Shown here in pieces: positions 19,800 through 62,800 of a stretch of 64,000 nucleotides of DNA. Origin of the DNA: a candidate division TA06 bacterium B3_TA06. GTDB lineage: Bacteria > Hydrothermota > Tepidihabitantia > B3-TA06. Location: NCBI GenBank assembly GCA_005223075.1, contig NJBO01000003.1:9902-73901 (forward strand). The letters are read 5' to 3'. The notes beneath the pieces are model-generated. The model was not told the origin of the DNA, made no database searches, and saw only the letters and a program-made list of their open reading frames with translations. How positions within the stretch are numbered: position 1 is the stretch's first letter; every line of letters starts with the position of its first letter. The translations under genes and the position numbers were made by a program.

Positions 19800-19818
19800 T
19801 TATACTGTCTCATAACAC

Positions 19819-29318: not shown

Positions 29319-29393
29319 GAAAGAACAGACAAACCAACCAGGGGGCGGGGTTACTCGCCCCCTCATAAACCTTAAACCTCAAAGGAGGAACAA

Positions 29394-29834: not shown

Positions 29835-29907
29835 GGTATACCTCGACAGACCATCAGGGGGCGGCCCTCCGCCCCCTTACAAACCTTAAACCAAAAGGAG
29901 GAACAAA

Positions 29908-30342: not shown

Positions 30343-30406
30343 AGTCACAACCTAGGGGGCGGGCTTGTGCCCCCTCATAAACCTCAAACCTCAAAGGAGG
30401 AACAAA

Positions 30407-30856: not shown

Positions 30857-30925
30857 ACCTTAACGCCGAGCGGGGACGGGTTTCCATCCCCGCTCGGGAT
30901 AAACCTTAAACCAAAAGGAGAAGCA

Positions 30926-31354: not shown

Positions 31355-31425
31355 GGCATAATAGAAACCAACCAGGGGGCGGCCATCCGCCCCCACTTAA
31401 ACCCTAAACCTCAAAGGAGGAACAA

Positions 31426-31875: not shown

Positions 31876-31953
31876 GGATATACCGGGAAACCGGCTAACC
31901 CAGGGGGCGGGCTTCCGCCCCCTGATAAACCCTAAACCTCAAAGGAGGAACAA

Positions 31954-32400: not shown

Positions 32401-32466
32401 ACCTAAAGCCGAGGGGGGCGCAAACCCGTCCCCCTCGGGATGAACCTTAAACCAAAAGGAGAAGCA

Positions 32467-32922
32467 ATGAGTAACTCCAAAAAGCTAATGCTCACCGCCT
32501 TGGCGGTGATCTTTCTGATCGGAGCAACGCCGCTCTTCGCAGAACTCGACGGCATCTGGGAAGGCTACGGCGAAGGAAGCTGCGAGACACCCGCTGGAAT
32601 CATCATCTACCCCTGGCAAACCTGGAACGGCAGCCTGGAGTCATGGCTCTTCACCGGCCACTGGCAAGACTTGGACGGCAGCTCCGGCGGCTTCCAGGGG
32701 GCCGTCATATCCCTCGCCAAATCCGTTGAACCGCCTTACCATACGGTTGCTCACTGCGAAGGAACCTGGACGTGGATGGATCCCAGCGGCTTAGAACCCC
32801 TCGAAATGGGTCCCTTCAATATGGAGTTCAATCTGGACATTGACACCTGCTGGGGCAACTGGTACTCCTATTCTAGCCCCGGAATTGGCGGAACCATGTG
32901 GGGCTGGAGGATAGGAGACTGA
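32467..32922 (+). CDS. Array paralog 13, subtype B
   Basis: 151 aa; start placed at ATG 32467; first ~45 codons and upstream intergenic region nearly identical to paralog 10. Confidence 0.7.
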   Translation: MSNSKKLMLTALAVIFLIGATPLFAELDGIWEGYGEGSCETPAGIIIYPWQTWNGSLESWLFTGHWQDLDGSSGGFQGAVISLAKSVEPPYHTVAHCEGTWTWMDPSGLEPLEMGPFNMEFNLDIDTCWGNWYSYSSPGIGGTMWGWRIGD

Positions 32923-38830: not shown

Positions 38831-39211
38831 ATGCCTGAACTAAAAAAGATATACAGGTGTGAGGAGTGCGGGGACATGATAGAGGTCCTAAAGGAAGGCT
38901 GCGGAAACTACTCGTGTCACGGCGAACCGATGAAGCTTCTGGATGAACAGACCGCTGACTATAAGACCGAAAAGCACGTGCCCATGATCGAGAAGATAGA
39001 AGGCGGCTTCAAGGTCATCGTGGGTTCGACCCCGCATCCCATGGAGGAGGATCACTACATCGAGTGGATAGAGATTACCGATGATGCGGGACGCGTCTAC
39101 CGCAAGCACCTTAAGCCGGGCGACGTGCCTGAAGCTATCTTCATGGTTGATTCCGAAAAGATCGCTGCCCGTGAGCACTGCAACGTTCACGGTCTGTGGA
39201 AAGGAGAATAA
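38831..39211 (+). CDS. dfx: Desulfoferrodoxin (superoxide reductase, 2Fe type)
   Basis: 126 aa; N-terminal desulforedoxin CEECG...C...C motif and C-terminal His/Cys centre (HVP...H...H...C..H); SD aaggaggg. Confidence 0.9.
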
Positions 39212-39213
39212 CC

Positions 39214-39753
39214 ATGATAAGCAAGAAGATCGAGGACGGATTCAACAAACAGCTGAACGCCGAACTCTATGCCGCATATCTCTACTTCGCCATAGGGGCA
39301 TGGTTTGAGGGCTCCAACCTTGAAGGTTTTGCTCAATGGATGAAGGCGCAGGCGTTTGAGGAGATGAGCCATGCAATGCGCTTCTACAACCATATAATCG
39401 AACGCGGCGGAATGGTGGAGTTGTACGCTGTCAAAAAACCGGAGATCACCTTATCAACCCCTGTGGAGGCGTTTGAGGCGGCTTACGAGCATGAGCAAAA
39501 GGTCACAAGGATGATCAACGACCTGGTTGATCTGGCCCGCGAGGAGGGGGACAACGCGGCCCTTATCGGCCTCCTGCACTGGTTCGTTGCCGAGCAGATC
39601 GAGGAGGAGGAGCAGACCCTCAAGGCGGTAGAGCGGCTCAAGATGGTGGAAGGCAGCAAGGAAGGTCTCTTTATGCTGGACAAGGAGATGGGTGCAAGGC
39701 CTCTGATCGCAACCGCAACCATCCTGAATCCGGCTGCAACACCAGGCGAATAA
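39214..39753 (+). CDS. Ferritin (non-haem, Ftn-type)
   Basis: Start placed at ATG 39214 (SD ggaaaggag); ferroxidase-centre pattern E..Y...E..H...E. Confidence 0.85.
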   Translation: MISKKIEDGFNKQLNAELYAAYLYFAIGAWFEGSNLEGFAQWMKAQAFEEMSHAMRFYNHIIERGGMVELYAVKKPEITLSTPVEAFEAAYEHEQKVTRMINDLVDLAREEGDNAALIGLLHWFVAEQIEEEEQTLKAVERLKMVEGSKEGLFMLDKEMGARPLIATATILNPAATPGE

Positions 39754-39953
39754 ATGAAGACACGATGGGCATCAAGGAGATGGTTCCCGAGCGACTGGGC
39801 ACGGAAAGGGTCACCGACATCATTAAGGAGGAACTTTCCCACATCACCATGCTCAGCAATCAACTTAAGGAACTCAAGGGTTGATTCAGGCCGTTTGAGA
39901 GAAAAAGGTTGGGGGTCGCTGCAAGCGGCCCCCGCAGCCCCCAAGGAGAAGGA

Positions 39954-41453
39954 ATGTTACTCAGCCCCAAGACCAGGATCGCAGAACTTCTGAAGGCTTT
40001 CCCTTTCCTGGAGGAGTTTCTGCCCCGCTACAACCCAAAGTTTAAGAAACTCCTTAACCCGGTCGCCCGCAAGACTATCGGCAAGATAGCCACGCTGCAG
40101 ATGGCCGCCTCCAACGCCGATATTGAAGTCACCAGATTCATTGCCGATCTGCGGGATGCGATTAAGAGCCAGACCGGCCAGGAAGTTGGTATAATGAGCG
40201 CCGAGGAGATGGCAGAGCGGGCGAAAAGGATCAGGCAGATACTTGAGGAACTGCACGCAGCCGAGGGGAAGAATATCGAGGAACTGCAGGCGCGGTTCGC
40301 AGCCGAGATCAAGGACGTAAGCCCCACAGAGATCGCCGAGATCGAGCAGCAGTTGATCAAGACAGGCATCAGTGAGGAAGAGATAACCTCGATGTGTGAT
40401 TTGCACGTGGCGGTTTTCAGGGAGTCACTGGATAAACAGGACTCTCCGGGGATGCAGCCCGGGCATCCGGTGCACACCTTCCGCGCCGAGAACCGGGAAT
40501 TCGAGAAGCTGGCAAGACGGTTGAGCGAGCTGACCCGGGATGCCGACGAGCAGGCTTTGGCCGAACGTAAGGACGATCTTGAGGAAGTGCTGGATAATCT
40601 GGGCAAGATAGACATCCACTACACCCGCAAGGAGAACCAGCTATTTCCCTATCTGGAAAAACACGGGGTGCAAGGACCGCCCCAGGTGATGTGGGGGGTG
40701 CACGATCAGATTCGAGAGCACCTTAAGGCAGTTCGTGTCGGACTGACCCAGGGAAATCTCCAGGCAGTTAAAGAGCGCTCCTCAAAGCTGGCCGGTGCGG
40801 TGCTGGACATGATCTACAAGGAAGAGCAGATTCTTTATCCCATGGCCCTGGAGAAGCTGGATGAAACGGAGTGGTGGGAGATTCGCAAGGGGGAGCCGGA
40901 GATAGGGTATGCTTTAATAGATCCGCCGGGCGAGGAGTGGAGGCCGGAAATCGTGGAAGAAAGGAGCGAGGAAATGGCTAAAGAAAGAATTGAAGCAGGT
41001 TCGATGAACCTCAATGACCTGCCCGAAATCGTTGCTCGCAACATGAAACTGCCTCTGGACGTAGGCGAGCTTACCCTGGAGCAGATAAACATCATGCTCA
41101 AGCACCTGCCAGTGGACGTAAGCTTTGTGGACGAGTCGGATGAGCTGCGTTACTACTCCGACACCCCGGAGCGCATCTTCGCCCGAACCCCTGCGGTGAT
41201 CGGCCGAAAGGTGCAGAACTGCCATCCACCCAAGAGCGTGCACGTGGTTAATAAGATACTGGAAGAGTTCAAGAAAGGCAGCAAGGATGCCGCCGAGTTC
41301 TGGATCGAGCTCAAGGGTAAGTTCATCCACATCCGCTACTTCGCCATGAGAGACGCCGATGGTAACTACCGCGGAACCCTCGAGGTTAGTCAGGATGTTA
41401 CAGAGATCCGCAAGTTAGAAGGCGAGAGGCGGTTGTTGGACTGGGAGGATTAA
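39954..41453 (+). CDS. Hemerythrin-like / DUF438-DUF1858-type protein with C-terminal PAS-like domain (putative)
   Basis: Start placed at ATG 39954; domain assignment from recalled family pattern, not searched. Confidence 0.5.
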   Translation: MLLSPKTRIAELLKAFPFLEEFLPRYNPKFKKLLNPVARKTIGKIATLQMAASNADIEVTRFIADLRDAIKSQTGQEVGIMSAEEMAERAKRIRQILEELHAAEGKNIEELQARFAAEIKDVSPTEIAEIEQQLIKTGISEEEITSMCDLHVAVFRESLDKQDSPGMQPGHPVHTFRAENREFEKLARRLSELTRDADEQALAERKDDLEEVLDNLGKIDIHYTRKENQLFPYLEKHGVQGPPQVMWGVHDQIREHLKAVRVGLTQGNLQAVKERSSKLAGAVLDMIYKEEQILYPMALEKLDETEWWEIRKGEPEIGYALIDPPGEEWRPEIVEERSEEMAKERIEAGSMNLNDLPEIVARNMKLPLDVGELTLEQINIMLKHLPVDVSFVDESDELRYYSDTPERIFARTPAVIGRKVQNCHPPKSVHVVNKILEEFKKGSKDAAEFWIELKGKFIHIRYFAMRDADGNYRGTLEVSQDVTEIRKLEGERRLLDWED

Positions 41454-41463
41454 GGAGAACGCC

Positions 41464-41670
41464 ATGGAAGCAAAGAAGATAAAAATCCCAGCGATAAGCT
41501 GTCATCACTGTAAGATGACCATAGAGCGGGAGTTAGGTGAACTTGAAGGTGTAAGGAGCGTTGAGGTAGACGTTGATGCCAAGACCGCCCGCATTCGGTG
41601 GGATGCGCCTGCAACCTGGGAGCAGATCAAAAAGACCCTCACCGAGATCGGCTATCCACCTGAGGAATAG
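41464..41670 (+). CDS. Small HMA-like metal-binding protein with CxxC
   Basis: 68 aa; IPAISCHHCKMTIE (non-canonical CxxC context). Confidence 0.55.
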   Translation: MEAKKIKIPAISCHHCKMTIERELGELEGVRSVEVDVDAKTARIRWDAPATWEQIKKTLTEIGYPPEE

Positions 41671-41674
41671 ATAC

Positions 41675-41881
41675 ATGGAGAAGAAGATAGTCAAGATACC
41701 GGCGATCGGCGGCCACTACAGCCTCATCGAGATGCGGAACGAGCTGGCAAAGCTTGAAGGCGTAAAGGACGTAAAGGTGGATATCACCACCAAGCAAGCG
41801 CGTTTCATCTGGGAAGCACCCGCCACATGGGAGAAGATCAAGGAGCGCATAAGCGCCATCGGCTACCCGCCCCAGGAGTGA
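41675..41881 (+). CDS. Small HMA-like paralog lacking the CxxC pair
   Basis: 68 aa; start placed at ATG 41675; IPAIGGHYSLIE aligns to the CxxC region of the upstream paralog; shared C-terminus WEAPATWEKIKERISAIGYPP. Confidence 0.5.
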   Translation: MEKKIVKIPAIGGHYSLIEMRNELAKLEGVKDVKVDITTKQARFIWEAPATWEKIKERISAIGYPPQE

Positions 41882-41913
41882 AGCCCGACGCATAGAGACC
41901 GCTAGGAGGACTG

Positions 41914-44151
41914 ATGCCGCCTAAATCTCAAAAGACCGAGATACCCATAATCGGCATGACCTGCACCAACTGCGCGTTGACAATCGAGCGCTCGCTGAAG
42001 CGCAAGGTGCCCGGTCTGATCTCGGCCAACGTAAACTTTGCAACAGAGCGAGCATCGGTGGAGTTCGATTCTAAGTTAGCCGATCTCAAGGTGATAGCCG
42101 ACGTTGTCGAGCGGGCAGGCTACAAGGCGGTTCTGCCTGATGACGACGCGAAAGCGGCGGACGCCGAGCAGGAGGCACGGGAGAAAGAGGTTCGCAGGGA
42201 GCGCACCGCGTTCTGGGTGGGTGTGGCGTTCACCGTTCCCCTGTTCGTTTTGAGCATGAGCAGAGATTTTGGGCTCGTAGGCGCGTGGGCTCACCAGCCC
42301 TGGGTCAACTGGCTGTTCCTTGCTCTTGCTCTCCCGGTTCAGTTCTTTACCGGCCTGGGATTCTACATCGGAGGCTTCAAGTCCTTAAGGAACCGCTCGG
42401 CCAACATGGAGGTGCTGGTGGCGATGGGCTCCTCGGTGGCATTCTTCTATTCCCTGGCGGTAATCCTGGTACCCCTGATCGCTCCAGGCATAAGCATCGG
42501 CGAACACGTCTACTTCGAGACCGCAGCCATGATCATCACCCTTATCAAGCTCGGAAAGATGCTTGAGGTGATGGCCAAGGGAAGGACGTCGGCGGCAATA
42601 CGAAAGCTGATGGATCTTGCCCCCAAGATCGCCCATGTGATTGATGCCGACGGAAACGAGAAGGATGTTCCGGCTGATCAGGTGAGACGAGGCGACGTAG
42701 TAATAGTCAAGCCCGGCGAGGCGATACCGGTAGACGGGAAGGTAATTGCCGGAAGTTCCTCAATAGATGAGAGCATGCTGACCGGCGAGTCCATACCGGT
42801 GGACAAGAAGGAAGGGGCTGAGGTGTTCGGCGCCACCGTCAATCAACAGGGTCTTTTGAAGGTTAAGGCCACCGGTGTTGGCTCGGAGACCGCACTCGCC
42901 CAGATCATAAGATTGGTAAGGGCGGCGCAGGGTTCGAAGGCACCCATTCAGAGGTTAGCGGACAGGGTGTCCGGTGTGTTCGTGCCCACGATTATCGGAA
43001 TAGCGATCGTGACCTTTGCTTTGTGGTGGGGATTGGGAGGCGAGTTCGTTCCTGCCATGCTAAGGATGGTTGCGGTTCTTGTGATCGCCTGCCCCTGCGC
43101 ATTAGGATTAGCCACACCGACCGCAATAATGGTAGGTACAGGCAAGGGTGCGCAGATGGGCATCCTCTTCAAATCGAGTGAGGCGCTGGAGACCGCCCAC
43201 AAGCTGGACACGATAATGTTCGATAAGACCGGGACCATAACAGAAGGCAAGCCGGTGCTTACCGATTGGTTGCCTCTGGATAACGGAGATGAAGGACTTG
43301 TTCTCGCCGCAAGTGCTGAGCGCGGCTCCGAGCATCCTATTGCGAAGGCGGTGGTTGAGGGAGCGGAGGGGAAGGGGGCGAAACTTAAAGAACCGAGGGA
43401 TTTCAAAGCGGTCTCAGGATTCGGGGTAACAGCCACAGTCAATGGCAAAGATGTGAAAGTAGGCAAACCCGACTGGTTCGAGTTGAGCAGTGAGATTAAA
43501 GGCAGAGTGGATGAGCTGGCATCGGCGGGCAAGACGGTGATAGTGGTTGAGGTGGATGGCAAGGTGGTAGGACTCTTGGCAGTAGCAGATGAAGAAAAGC
43601 CCTCCTCCCATGAAGCGGTAGCTTCCCTTAAGTTTCTGGGGTTGGTACCTGTGATGCTCACAGGCGACAACGAACGGGCGGCTCAAGCCATTGCTCAAAA
43701 AGTGGGAATTGATAAAGTAATCGCCGGGGTTCTTCCAGAGAAAAAGGAATCCTACATCAATGAATATCAAAAGGATGGGAGGAGGGCGGCGATGGTGGGT
43801 GACGGCATCAACGACGCGCCTGCCCTGGCACGGGCGGACGTAGGGATAGCGATAGGCACTGGCACGGATATAGCGATGGAGGCATCGGATGTAACCCTGG
43901 TGGGCGGCGACCTTGCTGGCGTAGCCAAGGCGATCAAACTCTCCAAGGCAACCATGCGCACCATAAAGCAGAACCTGTTCTGGGCGTTTGCATACAACAC
44001 CGCGCTCGTTCCCCTGGCTGCCGGGGTATTCGCCGCGGTAGGGCTTCTGCCGGGCTTCATCCTTCACCCAATGCTCGCCGCCGGTGCCATGGCGTTTTCG
44101 AGTGTGACTGTGGTGTTAAACAGTTTGAGGCTCTCACGGAAAAAGATATAA
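41914..44151 (+). CDS. copA: Copper-translocating P-type ATPase
   Basis: 745 aa; N-terminal HMA GMTCTNC, CPC transport motif, DKTGT phosphorylation site, GDGINDAP hinge. Confidence 0.9.
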
Positions 44152-44157
44152 TTATGA

Positions 44158-44245
44158 AGTGCAATGACACAGTCATTGCAGTCCAAAAGATTTTATGGAG
44201 TGCAACGAGCGTCTCGTTGCTTGCGACAACACGGTTGTCGCACTC
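44158..44245. repeat. REP-like palindromic cluster upstream of RAYT gene
   Basis: tgcaatgacacagtcattgca and ggagtgcaacgagcgtctcgttgcttgcgacaacacggttgtcgcactcc (outer stem enclosing two inner hairpins). Confidence 0.7.
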
Positions 44246-44262
44246 CAGAATAGCGTTGTATA

Positions 44263-44817
44263 ATGAGCGATGATTTAATCTACAAGCAGCACAAACACAA
44301 TCCACCTCATCTGTTCATCCCCAAAGCCAAATACTTCATCACCGCTTCTACATACCAGAAAAAGCCTTTTCTAAGTTCTCATGAGAGCAAATCGCGTCTC
44401 CTGGAATCCATAATTAAAGGATGCGATAAATCCAACTGGTTATTGGAAGATTGGGTTATACTCGACAATCATTATCACCTGATGCTGCAAGCCCCTGAGG
44501 AGGATCCTGATTTATCCAAAATGATCAGTGAAATCCATCGCTTTACCGCTCTCTGGATAAAGAAAAATGCCTTGGAAGCGAAATCGGCTAAAAGAATCTT
44601 CTGGAACTACTGGGATAGATGTATTACTCACGAACGGTCTTACTTTGCCAGACTAAACTACATTTACTTCAACCCGGTAAAGCATGGATATGTCCCAAAT
44701 CCTGAAGATTATCCGCATGGGAGTTATTATTACAGAATAAAGACTGAAGAAGAACGCCTCAAAAAACTACAACAAGATTATCCTTGGGGTCGTGTCAATG
44801 TCAATGACGATTTCTAG
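44263..44817 (+). CDS. REP-associated tyrosine transposase (RAYT, IS200-like Y1 HUH family)
   Basis: 184 aa; HUH motif NHYHLML and YIYFNPVKHGYV region; flanked on both sides by REP-like palindromes. Confidence 0.7.
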   Translation: MSDDLIYKQHKHNPPHLFIPKAKYFITASTYQKKPFLSSHESKSRLLESIIKGCDKSNWLLEDWVILDNHYHLMLQAPEEDPDLSKMISEIHRFTALWIKKNALEAKSAKRIFWNYWDRCITHERSYFARLNYIYFNPVKHGYVPNPEDYPHGSYYYRIKTEEERLKKLQQDYPWGRVNVNDDF

Positions 44818-44910
44818 CTTGACGCAACAACACGGTTGTCGTACTCCAAAAACCCACTCTGGAGTGCAACGAGCGCCTCGTTGCATGCAACAACACGGTT
44901 GTTGCACTCC
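44818..44910. repeat. REP-like palindromic cluster downstream of RAYT gene
   Basis: cttgacgcaacaacacggttgtcgtactcc and ggagtgcaacgagcgcctcgttgcatgcaacaacacggttgttgcactcc. Confidence 0.7.
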
Positions 44911-44924
44911 AAAATAATCTGTAA

Positions 44925-45371
44925 ATGCCTGATAAGATAAAAGTGCTTTTTCTCTGCATCGGCAACTCATGCCGCTCCCAGATGGCGGAAGGGTTACTCA
45001 GACATCTTGCAGGCGAGCGGTTCGAGGTGGAAAGCGCAGGCACCATCCCTTGCTTCGTTCAGCCTAATGCGATCCAGGTTATGGGTGAACTGGGCGTTGA
45101 CATATCCGGGCAGCGCTCAAAGCACGTGCAAGAATTTCAAGGCCAGTCCTTCGATTACGTTATCTCCCTGTGCGGCGAGAACAACTGCCACTCGTTTATA
45201 GGAAAGGCAGGCCAGAGCCTGCACTGGCCGTTTTCTGACCCGATCAGCGCATCCGGAACCGAGGAGAAGGTGCTGGGTGAGTTCCGCACCGTAAGGGACG
45301 CAATCAGAGCGAAGCTGGAAGAGTTCATAGCCGACCCTGGTTCCTTCTCCTCTGATTATGGAGTGCAATGA
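44925..45371 (+). CDS. arsC: Arsenate reductase / low-molecular-weight phosphotyrosine phosphatase family
   Basis: 148 aa; CIGNSCRS P-loop (CX5R); last codons and stop are supplied by the REP copy at 45359. Confidence 0.7.
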   Translation: MPDKIKVLFLCIGNSCRSQMAEGLLRHLAGERFEVESAGTIPCFVQPNAIQVMGELGVDISGQRSKHVQEFQGQSFDYVISLCGENNCHSFIGKAGQSLHWPFSDPISASGTEEKVLGEFRTVRDAIRAKLEEFIADPGSFSSDYGVQ

Positions 45372-45407
45372 CCGTGTCATTGCTACAACAACACGGTTGT
45401 TGTACTC
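45359..45407. repeat. REP-like palindrome overlapping the arsC 3' end
   Basis: ggagtgcaatgaccgtgtcattgctacaacaacacggttgttgtactcc. Confidence 0.7.
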
Positions 45408-45478
45408 CAAAGGACTTTCGTGAATGTTGCTTTCATCCCCATGTCAAGTAAAATTAGCTAAAGACTCAAGGAGGAGAA

Positions 45479-45988
45479 ATGACTGTAGAAGAGGCGATCA
45501 AGACCGCAATCACCTACGAGACCAGGGTGCGAGACGTTTACCAGGAGGCGGTGGAAAAAGCAACCGACGAGAAGGGCAGACGCATCTTCAAGCTTCTGGC
45601 CGACGAAGAACAGCACCATCTTGACTTCCTTTATTCAAAACTTGCGATGTGGCAGGCATCAGGAGAACTCACCATCGAAGGACTCAGAACCGCTCTTCCC
45701 TCCAAGGAAAGAATCATCGAAGGCACCAAAAAGATGAAAGCCCAGGTCTCCCGGAAGGACTACGGGGCCGAGATCAACATGCTCCAAAAGGCTCTTGAAG
45801 CGGAAAAGGTAACATCGAGCTTCTACAAAAAGATGGTTGAAAAACTCCCCGGCGATGCCCAGAAGATGTTTGCCCAATTCGTGGAGATCGAGGAAGGACA
45901 CCTCGCCTTAGTGCAGGCAGAGCTGGATTCGGTTACAAAGATGGGCTACTGGTTCGACTTCCGCGAGTTCGATCTCTACGGCAATTAA
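45479..45988 (+). CDS. Ferritin-like / rubrerythrin-family diiron protein (putative)
   Basis: 169 aa; E...EEQHH and EIEEGH pairs typical of four-helix-bundle diiron proteins; no rubredoxin domain. Confidence 0.5.
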   Translation: MTVEEAIKTAITYETRVRDVYQEAVEKATDEKGRRIFKLLADEEQHHLDFLYSKLAMWQASGELTIEGLRTALPSKERIIEGTKKMKAQVSRKDYGAEINMLQKALEAEKVTSSFYKKMVEKLPGDAQKMFAQFVEIEEGHLALVQAELDSVTKMGYWFDFREFDLYGN

Positions 45989-45991
45989 TCA

Positions 45992-46026
45992 CCCCACGAC
46001 TTTGCTCACAAAGTCGCGGGGACCCC
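45992..46026 (-). repeat. R1 hairpin repeat (reverse orientation)
   Basis: ccccacgactttgctcacaaagtcgcggggacccc. Confidence 0.65.
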
Positions 46027-46171
46027 AAAATCTTTTCGACAATCGCCGGAATACTTCATCAAGATTCTAAAATCGGCAATCCTCAAACAATGTGGTCTGA
46101 CAAGGAAAGAACTTGAAACTCTGTTATGACCGAGTCCATTATTTCGCTAAGCAACAAGCCTTGCTCACCCC

Positions 46172-46280
46172 GTCATTGCGAGCCACCGCAGGTGGCGTGG
46201 CTCCGTAGGATGACGGCTGCGGAACAATCTCATTGAGATTGCTTCTTCCTGACGCCTGCGACGTTAGGACTCGCAATGAC
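46172..46280. repeat. R7 MITE-like element, copy 2
   Basis: TIR gtcattgcgag (46172-46182) and ctcgcaatgac (46270-46280). Confidence 0.6.
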
Positions 46281-46374
46281 TAACCCTTCTTTCGGAAACT
46301 TCATCTCCCCTAACCACCGACCTACAATCACCCCGCGCTTGACACCCACTTATGCTCGGATATATTACTAGCCT

Positions 46375-46725
46375 ATGAGCAGGATTGAAGATTTCAAAAA
46401 AGAGCGCGAGCGGCTGCACAAGAAGCTGATGGAGTTCGCGGGAAAGAATATGAAGACGTTCCATCACCTCGACTGGCAGACATATCAAGAGGGTGCTCTC
46501 GATGCAAAGACCAAAGAGCTTCTGGGACTGGTGGCCTCGCTTGTGCTGCGATGCGAGGACTGCATCACCTACCATCTTATCAGATGCAAGGAGGAAGGGG
46601 TTACATCTGCCGAATTCGAGGAGGCCCTGATGGTGGGATTAATGGTGGGCGGTTCTATCGTAATCCCCCATCTGAGAAGGGCGGTTGATCTGTGGTGCGA
46701 CATGAAGGAGGGAAAAAATGACTGA
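46375..46725 (+). CDS. Carboxymuconolactone decarboxylase / AhpD-like family protein
   Basis: 116 aa; CEDCITYH motif typical of AhpD-like CxxC...H. Confidence 0.7.
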   Translation: MSRIEDFKKERERLHKKLMEFAGKNMKTFHHLDWQTYQEGALDAKTKELLGLVASLVLRCEDCITYHLIRCKEEGVTSAEFEEALMVGLMVGGSIVIPHLRRAVDLWCDMKEGKND

Positions 46726-47296
46726 TGAACAGAAAAAGGAGCTTTTCTCAAACCTTATCCACAAGGTAAGTCAGGCCACGCGTCCCGTAACACAACCTGA
46801 CTCTTCCCTTTCATCTTCTGAAGCACAGTCAGGCGACGATGCCGATGCCAGGCTTCAGGCAGTATGTGATCTCCTCAAAGAAGAAGTTCCCCACTACGAC
46901 TGGGTAGGATTCTATCTGGTAGACCCCAACAAGGAACGTGAACTTGTTCTCGGCCCATTTGCCGGCGAACCCACCGAACACGTTCGCATCCCCTTCGGCT
47001 ACGGCATATGCGGGCAGGCCGCTGAGCGAAAGAAGACCTTTATGGTCCCGGACGTTGCCAGGGAGCAAAACTATCTCTCTTGCAGCCCGCACGTCAAATC
47101 CGAGATCGTACTGCCCGTACTCAGACAGGGCGAGGTGATGGGGGAGCTGGACATTGACTCCAACACCCTGAATGCGTTTTCGGAGGAGGACAGGGCTTTC
47201 CTCTTAAAGGTCTGCTACGCCGCTACCAGGCTGTTGCAGCGCTCACAGGAGGCAAGAAAAACCCAGTACCCGTACCCCTTCGGGGCATTCTCATAA
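46718..47296 (+). CDS. GAF-domain free methionine-(R)-sulfoxide reductase-like protein
   Basis: 192 aa; WVGFYLV ... ICGQAA motifs typical of fRMsr-type GAF domains. Confidence 0.7.
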   Translation: MTDEQKKELFSNLIHKVSQATRPVTQPDSSLSSSEAQSGDDADARLQAVCDLLKEEVPHYDWVGFYLVDPNKERELVLGPFAGEPTEHVRIPFGYGICGQAAERKKTFMVPDVAREQNYLSCSPHVKSEIVLPVLRQGEVMGELDIDSNTLNAFSEEDRAFLLKVCYAATRLLQRSQEARKTQYPYPFGAFS

Positions 47297-47513
47297 TTAT
47301 TCGGAGCTTACGCTCCGCGCACAAGGAGATAACACCCGTAACACGCCTTGCGTAATATAGATGATAAGTTGCATTGGCAGGAGATTTAAAAATCGGAGGT
47401 TTTGGAAATGAATAGCTCAGTAAGCAGTTATCCCTTCATCAGACAAGGGGCTTAAGCCCCTTGTTGGGAGATTGTAAGACAGAGAAGAAAGAAAAAAATC
47501 AAAGGAGAACGAC

Positions 47514-47675
47514 ATGAAGCGCTACGTCTGCAACGTGTGCGGTTACGTGTACGACCCCGGGGTAGGCGATCTGGATTCGGACATCCCTGCTGGAACCGCG
47601 TTTGAGGATCTACCGGATGATTGGACATGTCCGGTGTGCGGCGCGTCCAAGGACGACTTCTCGCCCGAAGAGTAG
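47514..47675 (+). CDS. Rubredoxin
   Basis: Not in ORF track (53 aa); SD aaaggag; [53 protein letters not shown] with both CxxCG knuckles. Confidence 0.85.
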
Positions 47676-48523: not shown

Positions 48524-50020
48524 TTACTTAAAGACCGTGATTACAATCCTGCGGTTTAGAGCGCGCCCCTCCTCGGTCTCGTTCGAGGCCACAGGCTCTT
48601 TAGAACCCAAGCCCCTCGCGGTGATAAGATTCGGACTTATCCTCTCCACCCCAACGAAGTAGTTTCTTACAATCTCGGCCCTGGCCGCAGAGAGTGCCTG
48701 GTTGTCCTTATACCTCTCTCTGAACCCCTCGGCTAGAGGAACGTTATCGGTATGCGCCTCGACCCGCAACACCTTCCCCGGATAGTTGGCAAGGAACTCG
48801 CCAATCCTGGCAAGAACTCGATATCCTTCGGGGAAAGGTATCTGGGCCGAGCCCTCGTCGAAGCGGATCGCCTGCTCGGTCACGGTGATACGAACCAGGC
48901 TGTCGCTATCCACTATACCAAGCCCGTGGATACGGCCCACCTCTTCAAGCGCCTCACGTCTCAGACGCTCGATATCCGCACGTTCCCTCTCAAGGGCAGC
49001 GCGCTCCTTTTTGATTTGATCAAGCTCTTCACGTAAGCGGTCGCGCTCACGCGCCAGTGCCTCCTCACGCAGACGCCTTGCACGCTCGGCCTGCTCTGCT
49101 AAGATACTGTCCTTCTCAGCCTTGCGGGCATCGCCGAACAAGACGTTTAAGGAAAACTGGTGAAGAATCATCGAGGTATCGGCAGCCCCGTAGTTTAACG
49201 CCGTGCCGTAGCAAAGCTCGAAGTCCGTCTTCTGTAGCCGGTGTGTGCGCAGGGTTACGCCCAGGGTGGGTGAAAAGCCTGAAAGCTCATCCGTCCCGTA
49301 GCGTATCCCGGCACGCAGTCCAAGATGATCGCGAAACAGATAGGCCTCTGTGCCTAAATGAAGCTTTAAGACATTCTCTCTGAATCTCAAAGCCAGATCG
49401 CCGGCCAAAAGAAGGGATGAGAAGGGTCCCGATCCATTAAGCACCGGTTCCCAGACAATCCCGGTATGGACAATAGGGGATGAATAAAGATCAAACGCCG
49501 TCTCCACCACGGATAATCCCAGGCCAAGCCCTTTCGGTAAAGAAACCAAGCTGCCTATGGAAAAGAAAGCGCCTTTCGTAAATCGCTCTTCAAAGGCGTA
49601 GCGGTCAGGTTGCTCCGGGCTTCTCCAGATACTATGAGTGCCAAATGCCGCACCCAAGTTGAAGTGTTTCCCCAAGGGAACGGCCCAAAAGAAGCGCGCA
49701 TCTGCATCACCGCTTCCCCTGTCTGCCATGCCGGGGATATGCCAGTAGAAGAGATTTCCCCCTATGCTGCCCAGGCCACGCACCGGCTGAACATAGCTAA
49801 AGCTCCAGTATCTATTCCAACGGTACAGCGTGGCAGACAGAGCCGTAACCGGCCGCATCCATCTAGCGGGCAATGCAGGATTGGTGAGAGCGGAGAACGC
49901 ATCATCAGCGACTGCCACCTGATCACCTCCCAGGCCTAAGGTGCGTGCGGAGAAGGATACATCCTCGAATGCCGAAAGGCCTCCTGCCGCAAGAAGCAGC
50001 ACAACCAGACGCTTTATCAT
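48524..50020 (-). CDS. OmpA-family outer-membrane protein with coiled-coil linker
   Basis: 498 aa; signal peptide; C-terminal OmpA-like peptidoglycan-binding domain (NQALSAARAEIVRNYF ... NRRIVITV). Confidence 0.8.
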   Translation of the reverse strand: MIKRLVVLLLAAGGLSAFEDVSFSARTLGLGGDQVAVADDAFSALTNPALPARWMRPVTALSATLYRWNRYWSFSYVQPVRGLGSIGGNLFYWHIPGMADRGSGDADARFFWAVPLGKHFNLGAAFGTHSIWRSPEQPDRYAFEERFTKGAFFSIGSLVSLPKGLGLGLSVVETAFDLYSSPIVHTGIVWEPVLNGSGPFSSLLLAGDLALRFRENVLKLHLGTEAYLFRDHLGLRAGIRYGTDELSGFSPTLGVTLRTHRLQKTDFELCYGTALNYGAADTSMILHQFSLNVLFGDARKAEKDSILAEQAERARRLREEALARERDRLREELDQIKKERAALERERADIERLRREALEEVGRIHGLGIVDSDSLVRITVTEQAIRFDEGSAQIPFPEGYRVLARIGEFLANYPGKVLRVEAHTDNVPLAEGFRERYKDNQALSAARAEIVRNYFVGVERISPNLITARGLGSKEPVASNETEEGRALNRRIVITVFK

Positions 50021-50150: not shown

Positions 50151-51796
50151 CTAACGCAGCAGGATGACCTTTTTTGTCGCCGTCTTAGCAGATTGAAGGC
50201 GAATAAAGTAGACGCCGGGCGAGTGGTGTGTTACGGGCCAGGTGATTGTGCCGGATGATCCGCTGACGTGCAATTCATCCACCTTTCTGCCCACCGCGTC
50301 GAAGACAGCGAAGCTGGCGTGGAAGCCTTGAGGCATATCGAAGTATTGCAGGACGATTTGACGTCCGACCGAAGCTGAGAGCCGCCAATTGGATGGATGT
50401 GTTACGGGTGTTACGGGCGGCTCCTCGGAAATGCCTATCCTCGCAAGATCCGCAACGGGGAAGAAATCCGAACCCTTATCATCTCCACAGCTCGCAATCG
50501 TAGCCACCTTATTGGAAGCCATCACGTGGTAGATCGCATGGGCTGTTGCGTCGCCAAGTGCACTGGTGTAGCGGTAGTACTCCCCTGTGTGTAGAGTTCC
50601 CTGCCAGATTTCTGTTTTGTCTCCTCCATCTCGTGGAATCCTTGTCACTGTGACCTCCGTACTGTCTTTGAATGCGACAACATGAAGTCGAGAATAATAA
50701 TCCCTGCCGCCTCCGGAAAGTGATGTCTCAACGGGGAGATAAAACTCTGTTCCTAGACCGGTGCCGCCTCGGTCTATTCCCCGAACCATGTAGAAGGCAA
50801 TCATGCTTGCACCGTAGCTGGCCCAGGGAGTCTGAGCAACCGAGATATCCTTATCCGCATGTATGTAAAGGGCTATCCTCTGAGGCATATCCATTCCCTT
50901 GATCTCACCCTTTTTAGGACACACCACCTGCCAGATCGTATCAGCGGGATCATCAAGATCGGTAACGACAACCGTTGCATCGTCTTCCCAGGGGATGATG
51001 TTCAAATCCTGAGATGCCTCTGTCCAGTTATGACAATAGGTAATGAAATCCTGACCGGTGAAGGTTCCGTTGAACGCAGGTGCGTATGTGCCTACAACCC
51101 CGCTGAGCCCGCTGAGAGTCACCGCCGACACAGGCTTGGTTGACTCAACCGAGAAGATTAAGGGATGGGGAGTCGGAGAGTCTTGGAGATAATACTCGGC
51201 GCTATCCAGATCGCCCTCCCATATTATTCCACCTTCATCTATATCGCGAACAACGACATGGGTACTATCGTAATAGGCGAAGACAGCTATAACCGCATCG
51301 CTTACAGAAGAGATTTTGGGCCCCACAGATAGAGCTTGGTACTGAGTGGGCTGTTGTTTCCATCCACCGCGTACCAGCAGCCTAATCCTTCAATAAACGG
51401 ATCGCCACTGAGAACCGAAAACCCTTTGGGGGCAATAATTCTGTATACACCTGCGGCGAGATCGCTTACCAGTTTATACTCCTCCTCCATCAAGGTATCA
51501 AACCAGACGGACTGACCATCGGAGTCTACTACCTGGAATTCGGTCGAATCAGCCTAGGAAAAGATCACCACATCGCCGTAGGTATACACGTAGGTGGCAA
51601 AGGTATCCTCTTCGGACAACGCGGGGAATTGAAAGCGCCCGACAGTATGGGTGGGTTCGGAGTCATCAAGGACAGACATCAGTATGCCGCCGACTGCATA
51701 ATCCGACCACTGGTTCTCACCCGATCCGTAGAGGACAAACCCAGCGCCCATAACCAACACCACCAGCACCGCACTCCAAAACACGTTTTTCTTCAT
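50151..51796 (-). pseudogene. Disrupted gene for a T9SS-CTD secreted protein (in-frame TAG plus frameshift)
   Basis: Three consecutive ORFs (51554-51796 with signal peptide; 51302-51493; 50151-51326 ending in T9SS-like CTD GVYFIRLQSAKTATKKVILLR); segments 1 and 2 are in the same frame separated by TAG at 51551-51553; segments 2 and 3 differ by a frameshift near ggggccc/aaaa runs around 51320. Confidence 0.5.
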
Positions 51797-51998
51797 GCCT
51801 ACCTCCTCTTGATTGTTTTAACCTCGGCTGCATCGAGCAGCCCCCACTTACATAAAAGAACCTGCTTCCCTCAATATAGTCTTTTTCAAAAAGATGTCAA
51901 GTGAATCGTGGGAGGCCGCGATGTTCATGCTCTTGACAGGATTAAGATATTGGGATTTCAGGAGTTGACATAAGGCCCTTCCGGAGTTAAAGTTAGAT

Positions 51999-54589: not shown

Positions 54590-54723
54590 GCGCAGACCTT
54601 TAGGTCCGCCTTTATTTTTAGCGAGGCTAATACCCTATGAGCGCATAAAGCGCTCAAGGGGCACGCTGAGCCTCGCACTACATGCTGTGTGCTATACATG
54701 TAGTGCGGGACTTTAGTCCCGCT
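54590..54723. repeat. REP-like hairpin cluster upstream of IS200-like gene
   Basis: gcagacctttaggtccgc, ccctatgagcgcataaagcgctcaaggggcacgctg, cgcactacatg...catgtagtgcg, gcgggactttagtcccgc. Confidence 0.65.
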
Positions 54724-54789
54724 AAATAAAACTCAACGAAAAGGAAAGGTTAGGTTGACAAAAAACATGGTCTGATTTACTCTAACCCA

Positions 54790-55248
54790 ATGAGGAAGAA
54801 GCGAATACGCCTCAAGTCTTTCGATTACCTGGGTGCTTACAGATACTTCGTGACCATCTGCACGCATAACCAGAAGCAGGCATTCACCAGCGAGGGGCGC
54901 GTAAGAACCGTCTCTGACATTCTGAAAGAAACCGCTGAGCAGGAAGGATTCACGGTCTGGGCCTGGTGTTTCATGCCGGATCATTTGCACATCCTTGTCG
55001 AAGGTGTTAATGAGAAATCCGATCTCCGCCGGTTCATGAAGATATTCAAACAGAAAAGCGGCTATCAGTGGAAGCAGATTGAAGGCGAAAAGTTATGGCA
55101 GGAAGATTACTTCGAGCGCATCCTGCGGCGGGAAGAAACCACCCCAAAGGTCATAGAATACATTCTCAACAACCCTGTGCGGCGTGGTTTGGTTTCTTCT
55201 CCGGAGGAGTACCCCTTCTCCTATTCTCTTTTAGACAACAACATGTAG
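54790..55248 (+). CDS. IS200-like Y1 HUH transposase (RAYT-type)
   Basis: 152 aa; HUH motif DHLHILV, YILNNPVRRGLV region; flanked by REP-like hairpins; stop codon lies within the conserved catgtag REP terminus. Confidence 0.7.
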   Translation: MRKKRIRLKSFDYLGAYRYFVTICTHNQKQAFTSEGRVRTVSDILKETAEQEGFTVWAWCFMPDHLHILVEGVNEKSDLRRFMKIFKQKSGYQWKQIEGEKLWQEDYFERILRREETTPKVIEYILNNPVRRGLVSSPEEYPFSYSLLDNNM

Positions 55249-55441
55249 CGCGGGACTTCAGTCCCGCAGCGAGTCTAAAGACTCGCTCTACACGAATATA
55301 ATCTGGAATTGTGATCAGTCAAGGTAGAACATGTAGCGTGAACCCCAGAGTGCCCCCTTTGGACATTAGGTTCGCAGCGAGTCTAATACCCTATGAGCGC
55401 ATAAAGCGCTCAAGGGATACGCTGAGACTCGCACTACATGT
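55243..55441. repeat. REP-like hairpin cluster downstream of IS200-like gene
   Basis: gcgggacttcagtcccgc, gcgagtctaaagactcgc, ccctatgagcgcataaagcgctcaagggatacgctg, tcgcactacatg. Confidence 0.65.
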
Positions 55442-57621: not shown

Positions 57622-57649
57622 TTGACAAGCAGCTTCTTTGGAATAAATT
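57622..57649 (+). promoter_or_regulatory. Putative promoter TTGACA-N16-TAAATT ending 5 nt before ATG 57655
   Basis: ttgaca 57622-57627 (the ORF-track TTG start codon lies in this -35); weak -10. Confidence 0.35.
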
Positions 57650-57654
57650 TAGAT

Positions 57655-59493
57655 ATGAGTTTAAGAAGAGAGCTTTTATTTCTCATTTCACTTTCATTTG
57701 GGCTCTTCATTTTTTGTGGGGAAAGGGAACTGACACCCCAAGAGATTTTTAGGTCAGATTCGTTTTATACCGAGGCTTTGCGTTATGAAAAATTTGGAAA
57801 TTTGGATAGTGCAAGGGTTTTATGTGAAAACGCCTTAAGAATAAACCCTAAACATTACGATGCTCAGAGAAAATTAGCTGCAATTTACTTCGTTACTCAA
57901 GATTACCCCCAGGCTGAAGGGACATACCGTAGTTGTGTTGAATTAAAGCCAGATGATTTTTGGACTCAGTATAACCTAGGCTTGGCCTTACTTTACCAAG
58001 GTAAATTCTCTGAAGCCGCATTAGCAATTCGGAAGGCCATCGAGATTGACTCTACCCGCATTTTTGCATTTATTCACCTTACTGGTGCTTTAATTGGTAA
58101 AGGCGATGTTGTTAACGCAGAAATCGAAATAAGAAAAGCCATGAGTATTGAGCCGCAAAACGTAGATTTTCGACTTCATCATGCCTGGATATTATTTGTA
58201 AAACAAGATTTCGATAGAATGGAAGAAGAGGTTGATAATGTTTTGCTCTCTAATCCAGATATTACGTTTGCCCATTATTTGCGAGCTATAATTTGGTTAG
58301 TCAGAAATAAACTAGATAGAGCTGAGGTCGAATTCAAAAAAGCTATCGAATTGGAGCCAAATTTACCTCAGTTACACGCTCTACTTGGAGGGGTGAAACT
58401 TAAAACGGGTAATTTGGGGGAAGCGGAAGAAGAATTAAAACGGGCGTTGGAGTTGGGTGATACTCACCCTTCAACATACAATAATCTTGCTACCCTTTAT
58501 GAAAGGCAAGGTCGAACCCAAGAAGCAGAGGAAACATACATAAAAGCCATTGAATTAAGCAGTGATGACCCTACGCCTTACAACAATTTAGCATTTCTTC
58601 TATTTTACAAAGGTGAGTTAGACAGTTCATCAGTTGTTTTTTCAAAAGCCTTGACTTTAGCGAAAGAGGGCGAAGCACCCAGCATAAAAGATATTGCAGA
58701 GGATTTTACTAAAGTGTTACTCATTAAGGGCTGGGAAAATTGTATATTAGGCGATTTAGATGAAGCAACACTTGAGATTGATTCAGCAATTTCAGTGCTT
58801 AATAATTACGAAGTGCGTTCAAGAGGGAGTGAGAAGATACTTAAAGTTAATGCTAATACTCTGAGAGGTATAGTTTATCTTAAACAAAGAAAACCGGGCC
58901 AAGCTACCGAAAAGTTCGCCAAAGCCTTGGAAAACGATCCGAGAGATACTGTGGCCAGATATAACCTTGCCTTAGCTTATTTAATGGCTGGCCGTTTCGA
59001 TAATGCAGAATTGGCAGCCTCAGCTGCTATTTATCTAGCTGGTGAAAAAGGGTACCCGGAAGGAGAAAGTCTCTTAACTTACATTAAGAAAAAGAGGGAG
59101 GAAAGAAATGCAGGGTTTCGTTTTCATTGGATTCAATTAGGTGCCCTTGTACTAGTCGTCGGTTGGCTTGCCGCTTCTATGTGTGTTTTCTTTCATAAAA
59201 AAATAGGGAAAACTAAAAAAGGTCAGGAATTCAGAAGGCGATGGGCATATACATTTATGTTGATTTGGATTGCTTTGGCATTCATTTTCTTTATCTTCCC
59301 ATATACGAAGATTGTCACTTTCCCTACTGGCGGACAAGTCGAATTAGACCAAGATAGAATAAGACTCCCACAAGAAATAAGCCCTGATTTCTCACGTATT
59401 GCACAGCCCCAAATAATGACTTTTCCTGAAGAACCAAAATTCCAAATCGATATGGTTCTCGATTTAAGGAGTTACGCACCCCAATCTCCTTGA
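57655..59493 (+). CDS. TPR-repeat protein with C-terminal transmembrane segments
   Basis: Start placed at ATG 57655; multiple 34-aa TPR-like repeats; two hydrophobic helices near C-terminus; AT-rich relative to surroundings. Confidence 0.7.
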   Translation: MSLRRELLFLISLSFGLFIFCGERELTPQEIFRSDSFYTEALRYEKFGNLDSARVLCENALRINPKHYDAQRKLAAIYFVTQDYPQAEGTYRSCVELKPDDFWTQYNLGLALLYQGKFSEAALAIRKAIEIDSTRIFAFIHLTGALIGKGDVVNAEIEIRKAMSIEPQNVDFRLHHAWILFVKQDFDRMEEEVDNVLLSNPDITFAHYLRAIIWLVRNKLDRAEVEFKKAIELEPNLPQLHALLGGVKLKTGNLGEAEEELKRALELGDTHPSTYNNLATLYERQGRTQEAEETYIKAIELSSDDPTPYNNLAFLLFYKGELDSSSVVFSKALTLAKEGEAPSIKDIAEDFTKVLLIKGWENCILGDLDEATLEIDSAISVLNNYEVRSRGSEKILKVNANTLRGIVYLKQRKPGQATEKFAKALENDPRDTVARYNLALAYLMAGRFDNAELAASAAIYLAGEKGYPEGESLLTYIKKKREERNAGFRFHWIQLGALVLVVGWLAASMCVFFHKKIGKTKKGQEFRRRWAYTFMLIWIALAFIFFIFPYTKIVTFPTGGQVELDQDRIRLPQEISPDFSRIAQPQIMTFPEEPKFQIDMVLDLRSYAPQSP

Positions 59494-59528
59494 CTTCCCT
59501 CTTTAATCTCCGCCAAATCACTTAACTA

Positions 59529-59564
59529 CCCCACAACTCCGCTTCGCGTAGTCGCGGGGACCCC
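59529..59564 (-). repeat. R1 hairpin repeat (reverse orientation)
   Basis: ccccacaactccgcttcgcgtagtcgcggggacccc. Confidence 0.65.
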
Positions 59565-59612
59565 AAGGGGATCGTGCTGCATATGAGATCGCCACGGTCG
59601 CGATGACGTAAT

Positions 59613-59697
59613 CCCCTCCCCCTTAATCCCCCTACCCTATGGGGTGCAGTAAAATTGGCACCCCAAGGGGCACGCTGTCCACAAAGGGAGGGGGAAC
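59613..59697 (+). repeat. R2 ~85-bp MITE-like element
   Basis: cccctcccccttaatccccctaccctatggggtgcagtaaaattggcaccccaaggggcacgctgtccacaaagggagggggaac; a degenerate second copy follows at ~59720-59810. Confidence 0.7.
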
Positions 59698-59865
59698 TGT
59701 AGCCCTCACCCCAACCCTCTACCCTATAGGATACCCTATGAGATGCAATAAAGTTAGCATCTCAAGGGGCACACTGTGCAGTAAAGTAGGTATCCCACGG
59801 GGCACGCTGAGATCTGCCCCTACATCTTTATCCCTTTGAGCTTAAAATCGCTTGCGTGGGGTGGA

Positions 59866-62800
59866 TTATAGTTTTCCGTGCACGCGGACCCTGCGCACGC
59901 AGGGAATAGACTTCAAACGCTCTATAAGCTCTGCCGAAGGGCTTACCCTTATATCCTTGCTCCGTATACGGGTGCGTTCGTTATCATCTTCGCCGTTACT
60001 CAAGTTTATGTAAAAGGCGCAGCGTCCCGGAAACTCCTCCGTCAGTTTGCGTATCTTTAGGAGATTCTCCCTGGAGACTTCTTGTTCGTCAAGTTCCACG
60101 ATCATCTTATTCAGTCTTGCCCGTGCGGCGCTGAACGGGATTATCTCTTCACTGAAGAGCTTTGCCCTTGTATCATCCTCACTAACCGCTGCGCGTCCCT
60201 TAACCAGTATGGGTTCGTCTGAGCGAAGGATCGAACGGTGCTGCTCGTAGAGCCTTGCGAACACGAACACGTCTATCTCACCGGTGAAGTCGCGCAGGGT
60301 TATAATTGCATATTCACGTCCATTCTTGTCGCGCTTTGCTTTGCGAGCCGCAACTGCCCCGCCAACAACAATGGTTTTACCGTCCATACGTTCGTCTATC
60401 TCTTCGATTGGAGATACATCAAGCGCTTCGTAGAGGTCCTGGTAGTCCTCCAACGGGTGCCCTGACAGGTAAAAACCGAATGCGTCCTTCTCGTAGCTTA
60501 AAAAATCGGTGGGCTTGAACTTCTTTTGTTTGCGCCTCTCTGACTTTTCCTTGATACCTTGTGTATCGGCGAAAAGCCCTTGTTGTTTCTCAAGTATCAG
60601 CCCGCGCTTGTTCCCCAGTCGTGAGATCTCGTCGGGAAGATGAGCTATCAGAAGCTCCCGGTCCGGGTCGATTGAATCGAAGCAACCGGCTTTGATCAGG
60701 AACTCCGCACACTTGCGGTTCACCGTTCCGTGGGTGCGGGTAAGGAAGTCTCGCATGTCGGAAAAAGGCTCTTTTGAGTTCTCTTGCTCGATAAGCTCCG
60801 CCGCGCCTCTCCCCACGTTCTTAATAGCCCCGATGCCGAAACGGATTGCATCCCCTTGGATTAGGAACTCATAACCGCTTTTGTTTATCTCCGGCGGAAG
60901 GATCTTAATCCCGAACTTGCGGGCATCGGCGATGAACTGAGCCATCTTTGCTTCCGAATGTCCCATCTCGTTGGTCAAAAGGGCGGTGAAGAACTCAAGC
61001 GGGTAGTTGGCCCTAAGATATGCGGTGGCGTAGGAGATATGGGCATATCCGGCGGAGTGCGACTTGTTGAATCCGTAGCCCGAGAAGGGCGCGATCTGGT
61101 CGAAGATAGCCTTAGCTACCTTCTCAGGTACCCCCTCTTTCTTTGCCCCTTCGAAGAACTGCTGCTTCATCTCGGCCATGAGTTCTGGTATCTTCTTTCC
61201 CATGGCGCGGCGCAGGTGGTCGGCCTGAACGTAAGAAAATCCGGCGATAGCTCGGGCGGTTTGCATCACCTGCTCCTGGTAGATGAACATACCGTGGGTT
61301 CCGGCAAGCACCGGTTCCAGACGCGGATGCAGGTAGGTGATCTCGCTTTCTCCGTGTTTGCGGCGGAAGAACTCATCCAGATCAATGTTGGCCAGTGGTC
61401 CGGGTCTGTAGATTGCGATAACCGCGATGATGTCCTCGATCTGGGTAGGACCAAGTTTTCTCAGAATCTCACGCATACCCCTGCTTTCCAGCTGGAAGAT
61501 GCCAGTGGTCTCGGCGCGTTGCAACAGCTGGAAGGTTTTTTTATCATCCAGGGGAAGATTTTTGGTGTCGATTTTTTGACCGTCTTGGTTGATGAGCTTC
61601 TCGCTCATCTTGATCACCGACAGGGTTCTCAGCCCCAGGATGTCCATCTTTAAAAGACCGATTGAGTCCACGGCCTTCATGTCGAACTGGGTCGAGATAC
61701 CGTCGTCTGCAGCCTTGTAGAGGGGGATGAACTCGGTCAATGGCTCGGGAGTAATCACCACGCCTGAGGCGTGGATTGATGCGTGGCGCGATATGCCCTC
61801 AAGCTTCTGAGCGACGTTAAACAGTCGCTCGTAGAGAGGATCGGTCTTGATGGCCTCGGTAAGTTCCTTCTGGGTGTTGCGTGCCTCACGAAGACTTGCG
61901 TTAAATGGGATGAGCTTTGCCAGCCTGTCGACCTCACCGAATGGGATGTCCAGCGCCCTTCCAACGTCGCGAACCGCGGCCTTGGCCTTCATGGTGTCGA
62001 AGGTGATGATGCGTGCGACGTTCTCCTGGCCGTAGCGCTCGTGGATATAGTCAATGACCCTATCGCGATCCTCGTCCGCGAAGTCTATGTCGATATCGGG
62101 AAGGGTTATGCGGTCAGGGTTCAGGAAACGCTCGAATATCAGTCCGTAGTGGATGGGGTCAAGCGCGGTGATGTCCAGTGAGTAAAGAACCAGGCTCCCA
62201 ACCGCCGAACCCCGTCCTGGCCCCACAGGCACACCGGTCTTCCGTGCGTAGTCAACGATGTCTTTCACGATCAGGAAGTACCCGGCGAAGCCAGTCTTGC
62301 GGATGATAGCAAGCTCATGCTCAAGACGTTGCGCGTATATTTTTTTCTCCATAGGACACTTCTGGCGGCAGCCAGAGGAAGCGAGTTCCCTCAGATAGGA
62401 CATCGAAGAGTCGAACTCCTTGGGGATAGGGTAGCGCGGCAGTTTGAAGTTGCGGGTATCCAGGTCAATGCTCACCATGCAGCGCTCGGCTATCTTGACC
62501 GTGTTTTCAAGAGCTTCAGGCAAATCCTTGAAAGCTTCGGCCATCTCCTTGGGCGATTTGAAGTACATCTCGTTTGACTCGAATCGCATCCGGTCAACAT
62601 CGTCCACCTTCTTCCCGGTCTGGATTGCCAAGAGGACATCATGGGCGTCGGCGTCCTCGCGGCTAAGAAAGTGACAGTCGTTGGTGGCCACCACATCCAC
62701 ACCATCTTCTCGTGCCAGATCAACGATGAGTTTAATCATATCGGCACTTTCCGGCAGCCCCAGGTTCTGCACCTCAATGAAGAAGTTCTCAGGCCCGACG

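Follow-up and report, generated by a model that had tools for sequence, protein, structure and literature searches.

In the 64-kb window (the whole stretch of DNA analysed here, 64,000 nucleotides from candidate division TA06 bacterium B3_TA06, an uncultured sediment bacterium), positions 50151–51796 of the minus strand correspond to an ancestral gene of about 548 codons, which is now divided into three pieces (Table 1). The frame opened by the ATG at 51796 runs for 80 codons to an in-frame TAG, beyond which the same frame is open for a further 84 codons, to a TAA at 51302–51304. The rest of the gene lies in the -1 frame as a body ORF of 391 codons, extending from a GTG at 51326 to the natural stop codon. 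A promoter candidate was identified about 77 nt 5' of the ATG, which is also preceded by a Shine-Dalgarno sequence; the GTG of the body ORF has none on its 5' side, and its 391-aa product would carry no signal peptide. A preliminary description of this locus had placed the three pieces at these positions, and both the reading of the ORFs on the minus strand and collinear homology (see below) bear it out. It had also put an amber codon between two segments of one frame; the codon is indeed there and in frame, but its bases are t51556, a51555 and g51554, whereas the bases at 51551–51553, to which it had been assigned, form the next codon, GCT; the slip probably arose because the listed ORF coordinates count the stop codon in.

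Table 1. Features of the interrupted gene and its upstream region (positions in the window)
Feature	Position	Strand	Remarks
Sigma-70-like promoter candidate	51873–51900	-	TTGACA, 16-nt spacer, TATATT; 11/12 matches; consensus match only
Shine-Dalgarno sequence GGAGG	51802–51806	-	5 nt before ATG 51796; read from sequence
Piece 1, codons 1–80	51557–51796	-	Sec-type signal peptide MKKNVFWSAVLVVLVMGAGFVLYG and start of mature protein; = CEE36_03040
In-frame amber TAG	51554–51556	-	replaces conserved Tyr/Phe codon in motif GD[IV]V[IV]FS[YF]
Piece 2, 73 codons (ADSTEF...PLSTK)	51335–51553	-	frame of piece 1
Interval holding 1-nt deletion	51327–51334	-	homologues AAR CTN YTR TCN GTN (K L L S V); window AAG CT- CTA TCT GTG
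Out-of-frame tail of piece 2 (L YLWGPKSLL, then TAA 51302–51304)	51302–51334	-	contains G4C3A4 run
Piece 3, 393 codons (LSVGPK...VILLR)	50154–51332	-	-1 frame; all-beta body, linker and C-terminal domain
Exact 9-nt tandem duplication (LSG-LSG)	51099–51116	-	in frame, private to window copy
T9SS type A C-terminal sorting domain (Por_Secre_tail), matched core	50163–50318	-	profile match
Natural stop codon, itself TAG	50151–50153	-	

When both interruptions are bridged, the stitched protein has a T9SS type A sorting domain at its extreme C-terminus (residues 493–545 of 548), which scored 30 bits against PF18962 (cut-off 27) and 35.7 bits against TIGR04183 (cut-off 23). The beta-rich body shows weak similarity to PF17517 (IgGFc_binding), and a Pro/Thr linker is present. 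At the other end of the protein, the signal peptide was called by eye from a signal-peptide-like N-terminus. Cargo proteins of the T9SS are directed by a signal peptide to the periplasm, where the secretion system recognises the C-terminal domain. In the window copy, the Sec signal peptide and the T9SS C-terminal domain are not on one polypeptide, since both the amber codon and the frameshift lie between them.

A search with the stitched sequence retrieved 44 relatives, many of which are 523–553 aa long and cover 100% of the query, with identities of up to 65%; over the full length, the family shares 41–65% identity with the stitched sequence (E values down to 4e-225). The three pieces align in order with the best relative, P0002 (538 aa): 1) piece 1 with residues 1–80 (57% identity, E = 3e-27), 2) piece 2 with residues 83–154 (72% identity, E = 1e-35), and 3) the body in piece 3 with residues 156–538 (65% identity, E = 0). 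Between these segments, the TAG takes the place of Tyr81 of P0002 and the codon bearing the deletion that of Leu155, while Glu82 corresponds to the next codon (GCT, Ala), outside the compared piece. Judged by sequence comparison, this collinearity is far beyond chance. Once both lesions are bridged, the stitched protein contains the motifs GDxVxFS[YF], STKLLSVGP, PAFNGTFTG and HADKDIS. With an intact collinear homologue and two profiles above their cut-offs, the earlier view of the locus as a single T9SS cargo gene with two interruptions, one an in-frame amber codon and the other a frameshift, is upheld.

Relatives of this gene encode proteins of about 540 aa in TA06, WOR-3 and Stahlbacteria genomes (examples are GF359_00040, JXM67_02965, CEE36_01660 and P0002–P0034), some of which match PF17517 (IgGFc_binding). 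At least three further paralogues are present in B3_TA06 itself (CEE36_01660, CEE36_06440 and CEE36_02530), the nearest of which, CEE36_01660, shares 57% amino acid identity with the stitched protein, and related WOR-3 bins carry three to six family members. The window copy has the same 57 invariant columns and the same domain order as the rest of the family, and at otherwise invariant columns the stitched protein shows one private substitution, fewer than most intact relatives. In contrast, all 15 full-length aligned relatives are uninterrupted, the stop codon and the deletion being confined to the window copy. In the comparison with orthologues that had been proposed for this locus, the homologues are intact at both sites, and both lesions are absent from every relative. 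The window copy also differs from the family in its private 9-nt duplication and in a private 2-aa insertion, FA, in the T9SS C-terminal domain (FHAS-FA-VFDA, about 50290–50300, minus strand), which is absent from 15/15 aligned relatives.

An AlphaFold model of P0002 (pLDDT 83.6) is all-beta, and its only specific structural matches were T9SS C-terminal domains, namely those of mirolase, NucA, FspA, RemA and RgpB. The closest known systems are type A cargo proteins of the T9SS, for example mirolase of Tannerella forsythia, RgpB of Porphyromonas gingivalis, and RemA and NucA of Flavobacterium johnsoniae. A fold search with the passenger domains returned generic beta-sandwich matches only (TM-scores of about 0.1) and no close solved relative, so that no function can be assigned to these domains.

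Directly downstream of the interrupted gene, a 498-aa OmpA-family protein is encoded at 48524–50020 on the minus strand; it consists of an N-terminal region followed by a coiled coil and then the OmpA domain, and genes of this kind are conserved near the cargo family. An orthologous gene (498 aa, 52% identity) is found downstream of the intact family member P0004 on a 70-kb metagenome scaffold, separated from it by four extra genes, and on the basis of this gene order P0004 was treated as a partly syntenic intact counterpart. On the related scaffold (L001, 7641–12965), the four genes between the cargo and OmpA genes encode a PatA_N response regulator, a TPR and a PEGA protein, and one protein of unknown type. 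Since these four genes are absent from the window, a rearrangement adjacent to the broken gene is indicated.

At the nucleotide level, the amber codon is a substitution, TAC or TAT having become TAG through a change at 51554; both of the closest genes read TAC in the DNA alignment, and TAC, TAT or TTT occupies the position in each of the 25 genuine gene copies, from 19 related loci, that carry the conserved FS motif. The second lesion appears as one gap column in the DNA alignment with the two closest genes (AAA-CTT-CTG-TCT versus AAG-C-T-CTA-TCT), and the STKLLSVGP-type motif is encoded in a single frame in all 19 of its occurrences (17 related loci). Because one relative reads K-L-Y-T-V here, the missing base could be any within 51327–51334. 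Every possible position falls in CTCTATCTG, 7–14 nt upstream of the G4C3A4 run. The two lesions are spaced 220–229 nt apart. No repeat was detected by Tandem Repeats Finder at the deletion site, and elsewhere in the gene the program reported only two 9-nt two-copy repeats. These data correct the preliminary description, in which the body was said to be shifted by one frame near homopolymer runs (ggggcccaaaa, ~51320): the frame changes within 51327–51334, where the window reads AAG CTC TAT CTG. They do not support the homopolymer mechanism implied there, since the nucleotide lost from CTCTATCTG falls outside the G4, C3 and A4 runs, which would in any case be too short for a contingency locus, and the substitution TAC to TAG is not of the homopolymer type.

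These observations are best explained by a young pseudogene, and we consider it probable that the sequenced population carried a loss-of-function allele. The gene would have originated as one member of the multi-copy, all-beta T9SS cargo family of TA06, WOR-3 and Stahlbacteria, and would have been inactivated by two independent point lesions, a TAC-to-TAG transversion at the conserved Tyr codon and a 1-nt deletion in the Leu codon, one of the two hits presumably having been acquired under relaxed selection after the other. Redundancy among the paralogues may have permitted the loss. Translation from the promoter candidate, Shine-Dalgarno sequence and ATG would end after 80 residues, and since the 391-aa ORF has neither a ribosome-binding site nor a signal peptide, its product could not reach the periplasm for recognition of the C-terminal domain by the T9SS. 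The fragments are thus likely to be non-functional, and no functional cargo would be expected. In this respect the locus is an ordinary disrupted gene that calls for no new mechanism. As in ordinary bacterial pseudogenes created by nonsense and frameshift mutations, adjacent fragments on one strand are collinear with one protein; the locus stands apart only in being young, as shown by expression signals and conserved residues that are still intact. Among the options offered in the preliminary description, a recent pseudogene is accordingly the one best supported, whereas phase variation and homopolymer sequencing error are unlikely.

The main question is whether the lesions exist in the cells or arose in the assembly. 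With an undamaged start codon, Shine-Dalgarno sequence and promoter-like site, and with almost every residue conserved in the family retained, the damage is either recent or artefactual, and preserved residues and expression signals are equally expected of an intact gene with two consensus errors. The source of the window is a metagenome-assembled genome, and the gene could be whole in the cells if the lesions came from read errors at low coverage or from the path of a minor or chimeric strain. Apart from two bases it has the look of a working gene: the expression signals (promoter-like site and Shine-Dalgarno sequence), the start codon and the signal peptide are in place, and only one invariant residue is changed; moreover, the spacing of 220–229 nt fits within one sequenced fragment, and errors in metagenome bins can cluster locally at coverage dips or strain-variant junctions. 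However, the window contains no N, the length of the contig (166,987 bp) suggests adequate coverage, and CEE36_01660, at 57% identity, is too distant for mis-assembly between paralogues. A deletion outside a homopolymer and a transversion are also not typical systematic sequencing errors. No other broken gene was found among the approximately 60 genes of the 64 kb, which is evidence against an indel-prone sequencing chemistry, and inspection of three overlapping same-strand ORF pairs and of a number of long gaps revealed no other split gene. The inspected pairs proved to be distinct genes (ECF sigma factor/anti-sigma factor, desulfoferrodoxin/ferritin-like protein, and CMD/GAF), and the inspected gaps were occupied by genes for rubredoxin and an RRM protein and by intergenic repeats (repeated palindromic elements); a generally error-prone assembly was rejected on these grounds. 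No further lesion was found in the 64 kb, and by our own calculation, which assumes uniform random error, the probability that two lesions would lie 220–229 nt from each other is then about 0.7%. Independent random errors are therefore unlikely, and such clustering fits relaxed selection after a first hit. We infer that the cells themselves probably carry the lesions, which would then not be confined to the assembly, and a gene that is intact in the cells, although it deserves consideration, seems rather doubtful.

Two further explanations would keep the gene usable in spite of real lesions, and both appear very improbable. Phase variation is common among genes for surface or secreted proteins of multi-copy families, to which this gene belongs, and with G4, C3 and A4 runs nearby it could be seen as a contingency gene switched off, revertibly, by slipped-strand mispairing. 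The indel is outside these runs, however, and no simple-sequence tract was found by Tandem Repeats Finder at the frame change in CTCTATCTG; runs of 3–4 nt are far too short for slippage to be appreciable, and slippage cannot revert an amber substitution. As the deletion maps outside the runs, homopolymer slippage was rejected both as phase variation and as sequencing error. Programmed recoding, on the other hand, would produce a full-length cargo by read-through of the amber codon and a -1 frameshift on G_GGC_CCA_AAA (51314–51323), the product differing only at the amber position and in having YLW for LSV. Read in the upstream frame, G4C3A4 contains two overlapping heptamers of the formal X_XXY_YYZ type (G_GGC_CCA and C_CCA_AAA), which are 3–4 codons before the upstream-frame stop, and a -1 slip on them lands exactly in the body frame. 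That a slip at this position gives the body frame is a curious coincidence. Heptamers with YYY = CCC are not classical efficient slippery sites, and the match here is a formal one. Against recoding, G4C3A4 simply encodes the conserved Val-Gly-Pro-Lys, and its nucleotides vary in the relatives, which use various Gly-Pro-Lys codons; neither site shows a frameshift or a stop codon in any of them. The 94 nt 3' of the heptamers fold at -19.3 kcal/mol, compared with a mean of -20.1 for shuffled sequences (z = 0.26). A programmed -1 frameshift was rejected, since the formal heptamer is neither conserved nor followed by a downstream structure. TAG is moreover a normal terminator in the window, where it ends 14/60 long ORFs including this gene, and the standard code is therefore used; with Tyr or Phe and never TAG at the site in the relatives, an alternative code or pyrrolysine-type decoding of TAG was likewise rejected. 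Finally, one gene would need two unrelated recoding events. We hold it equally improbable that the lesions are tolerated through low-level amber read-through combined with a -1 slip on G_GGC_CCA_AAA, that is, that expression of the cargo is throttled by double recoding. In a milder version, the locus might be a polymorphic loss-of-function allele kept by selection against exposing the surface protein.

Genes disrupted by nonsense and frameshift mutations are often annotated by automated pipelines as several short hypothetical proteins, and the young pseudogene proposed here is no exception. CEE36_03030 (TKJ43674.1; P0001) matches the body ORF of 391 aa at 100% identity, and CEE36_03040 (TKJ43676.1) is the same as the N-terminal ORF of 80 aa, so at least two of the pieces are listed in GenBank as separate hypothetical proteins and not as one disrupted gene. 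CEE36_03040, CEE36_03030 and probably one CDS between them are parts of one gene, which should be recorded either as a single pseudogene or as a corrected gene, and the UniProt entry of 391 aa represents a truncated artefact without a signal peptide. Neither an independent copy of this allele nor an intact counterpart with at least 90% identity was found in a search of 5.8 billion proteins, by exact cluster look-up, in JGI metagenome contigs or among the GTDB representative genomes, a set in which the source genome was likewise not found. A literature search under the name 'B3_TA06' found nothing. The practical value of the present analysis lies in correcting the annotation; the locus also illustrates turnover in a multi-copy T9SS cargo family. 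The passenger domains of this family have no characterised relative, and the family would be a more worthwhile target than its broken copy.

Several other regions of the window are worth recording. A tandem array of 13 paralogous ORFs (142–178 aa, spaced by about 510–520 nt) is located at 26209–32922 on the plus strand, after a gene for a 922-aa HEAT-repeat protein (23317–26085), and is perhaps what is most unusual in the window. Each member has the signal peptide MSNSKKLLIAALAVIFLxGATPLAA and a body rich in Trp and Cys (YPWQTWxG...GEWxD..GNxGTFxG...CEGxWTW...CxGxW); two members gave no match to Pfam and one gave none to NCBIfam. The region 38831–47675 holds a cluster of oxidative-stress and metal-related genes, encoding desulfoferrodoxin, a ferritin-like protein, a low-molecular-weight phosphatase, CMD, GAF and rubredoxin as well as a P-type heavy-metal ATPase (41914–44151); it includes a rubrerythrin/ferritin-like ORF (45479–45988) with an odd domain order in its Pfam matches. 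No tRNA genes or Rfam families were detected in the 64-kb window.

Repeated elements are also present. An intergenic repeat of about 90 nt occurs at 4771–4865, 10342–10433 and 59612–59705, with a weaker copy at 59732–59790; the copies are 93–95% identical, occur in both orientations and are internally palindromic (CCCTATGGGGCGCAGTAAAATTGGCGCCCCAAGGG), and the repeat looks like a REP- or MITE-type element. A 79-nt element is present at 17386–17572 in two copies (95% identical, 108 nt apart), after a riboflavin-synthase-like gene (16785–17366). The GC content, about 0.53 in the window, dips to 0.42–0.43 at 18001–20000 and 58001–60000, the latter dip overlapping a TPR gene (57622–59493) and the repeat-bearing gap. 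Two genes encode IS200-like Y1 transposases (PF01797; 44263–44817 and 54790–55248), each of which is bracketed by direct, hairpin-containing repeats of 57–65 nt (D17 and D16; regions 44196–44916 and 54620–55440), an arrangement that resembles IS200/IS605 ends or that of REP-associated transposases (RAYT).
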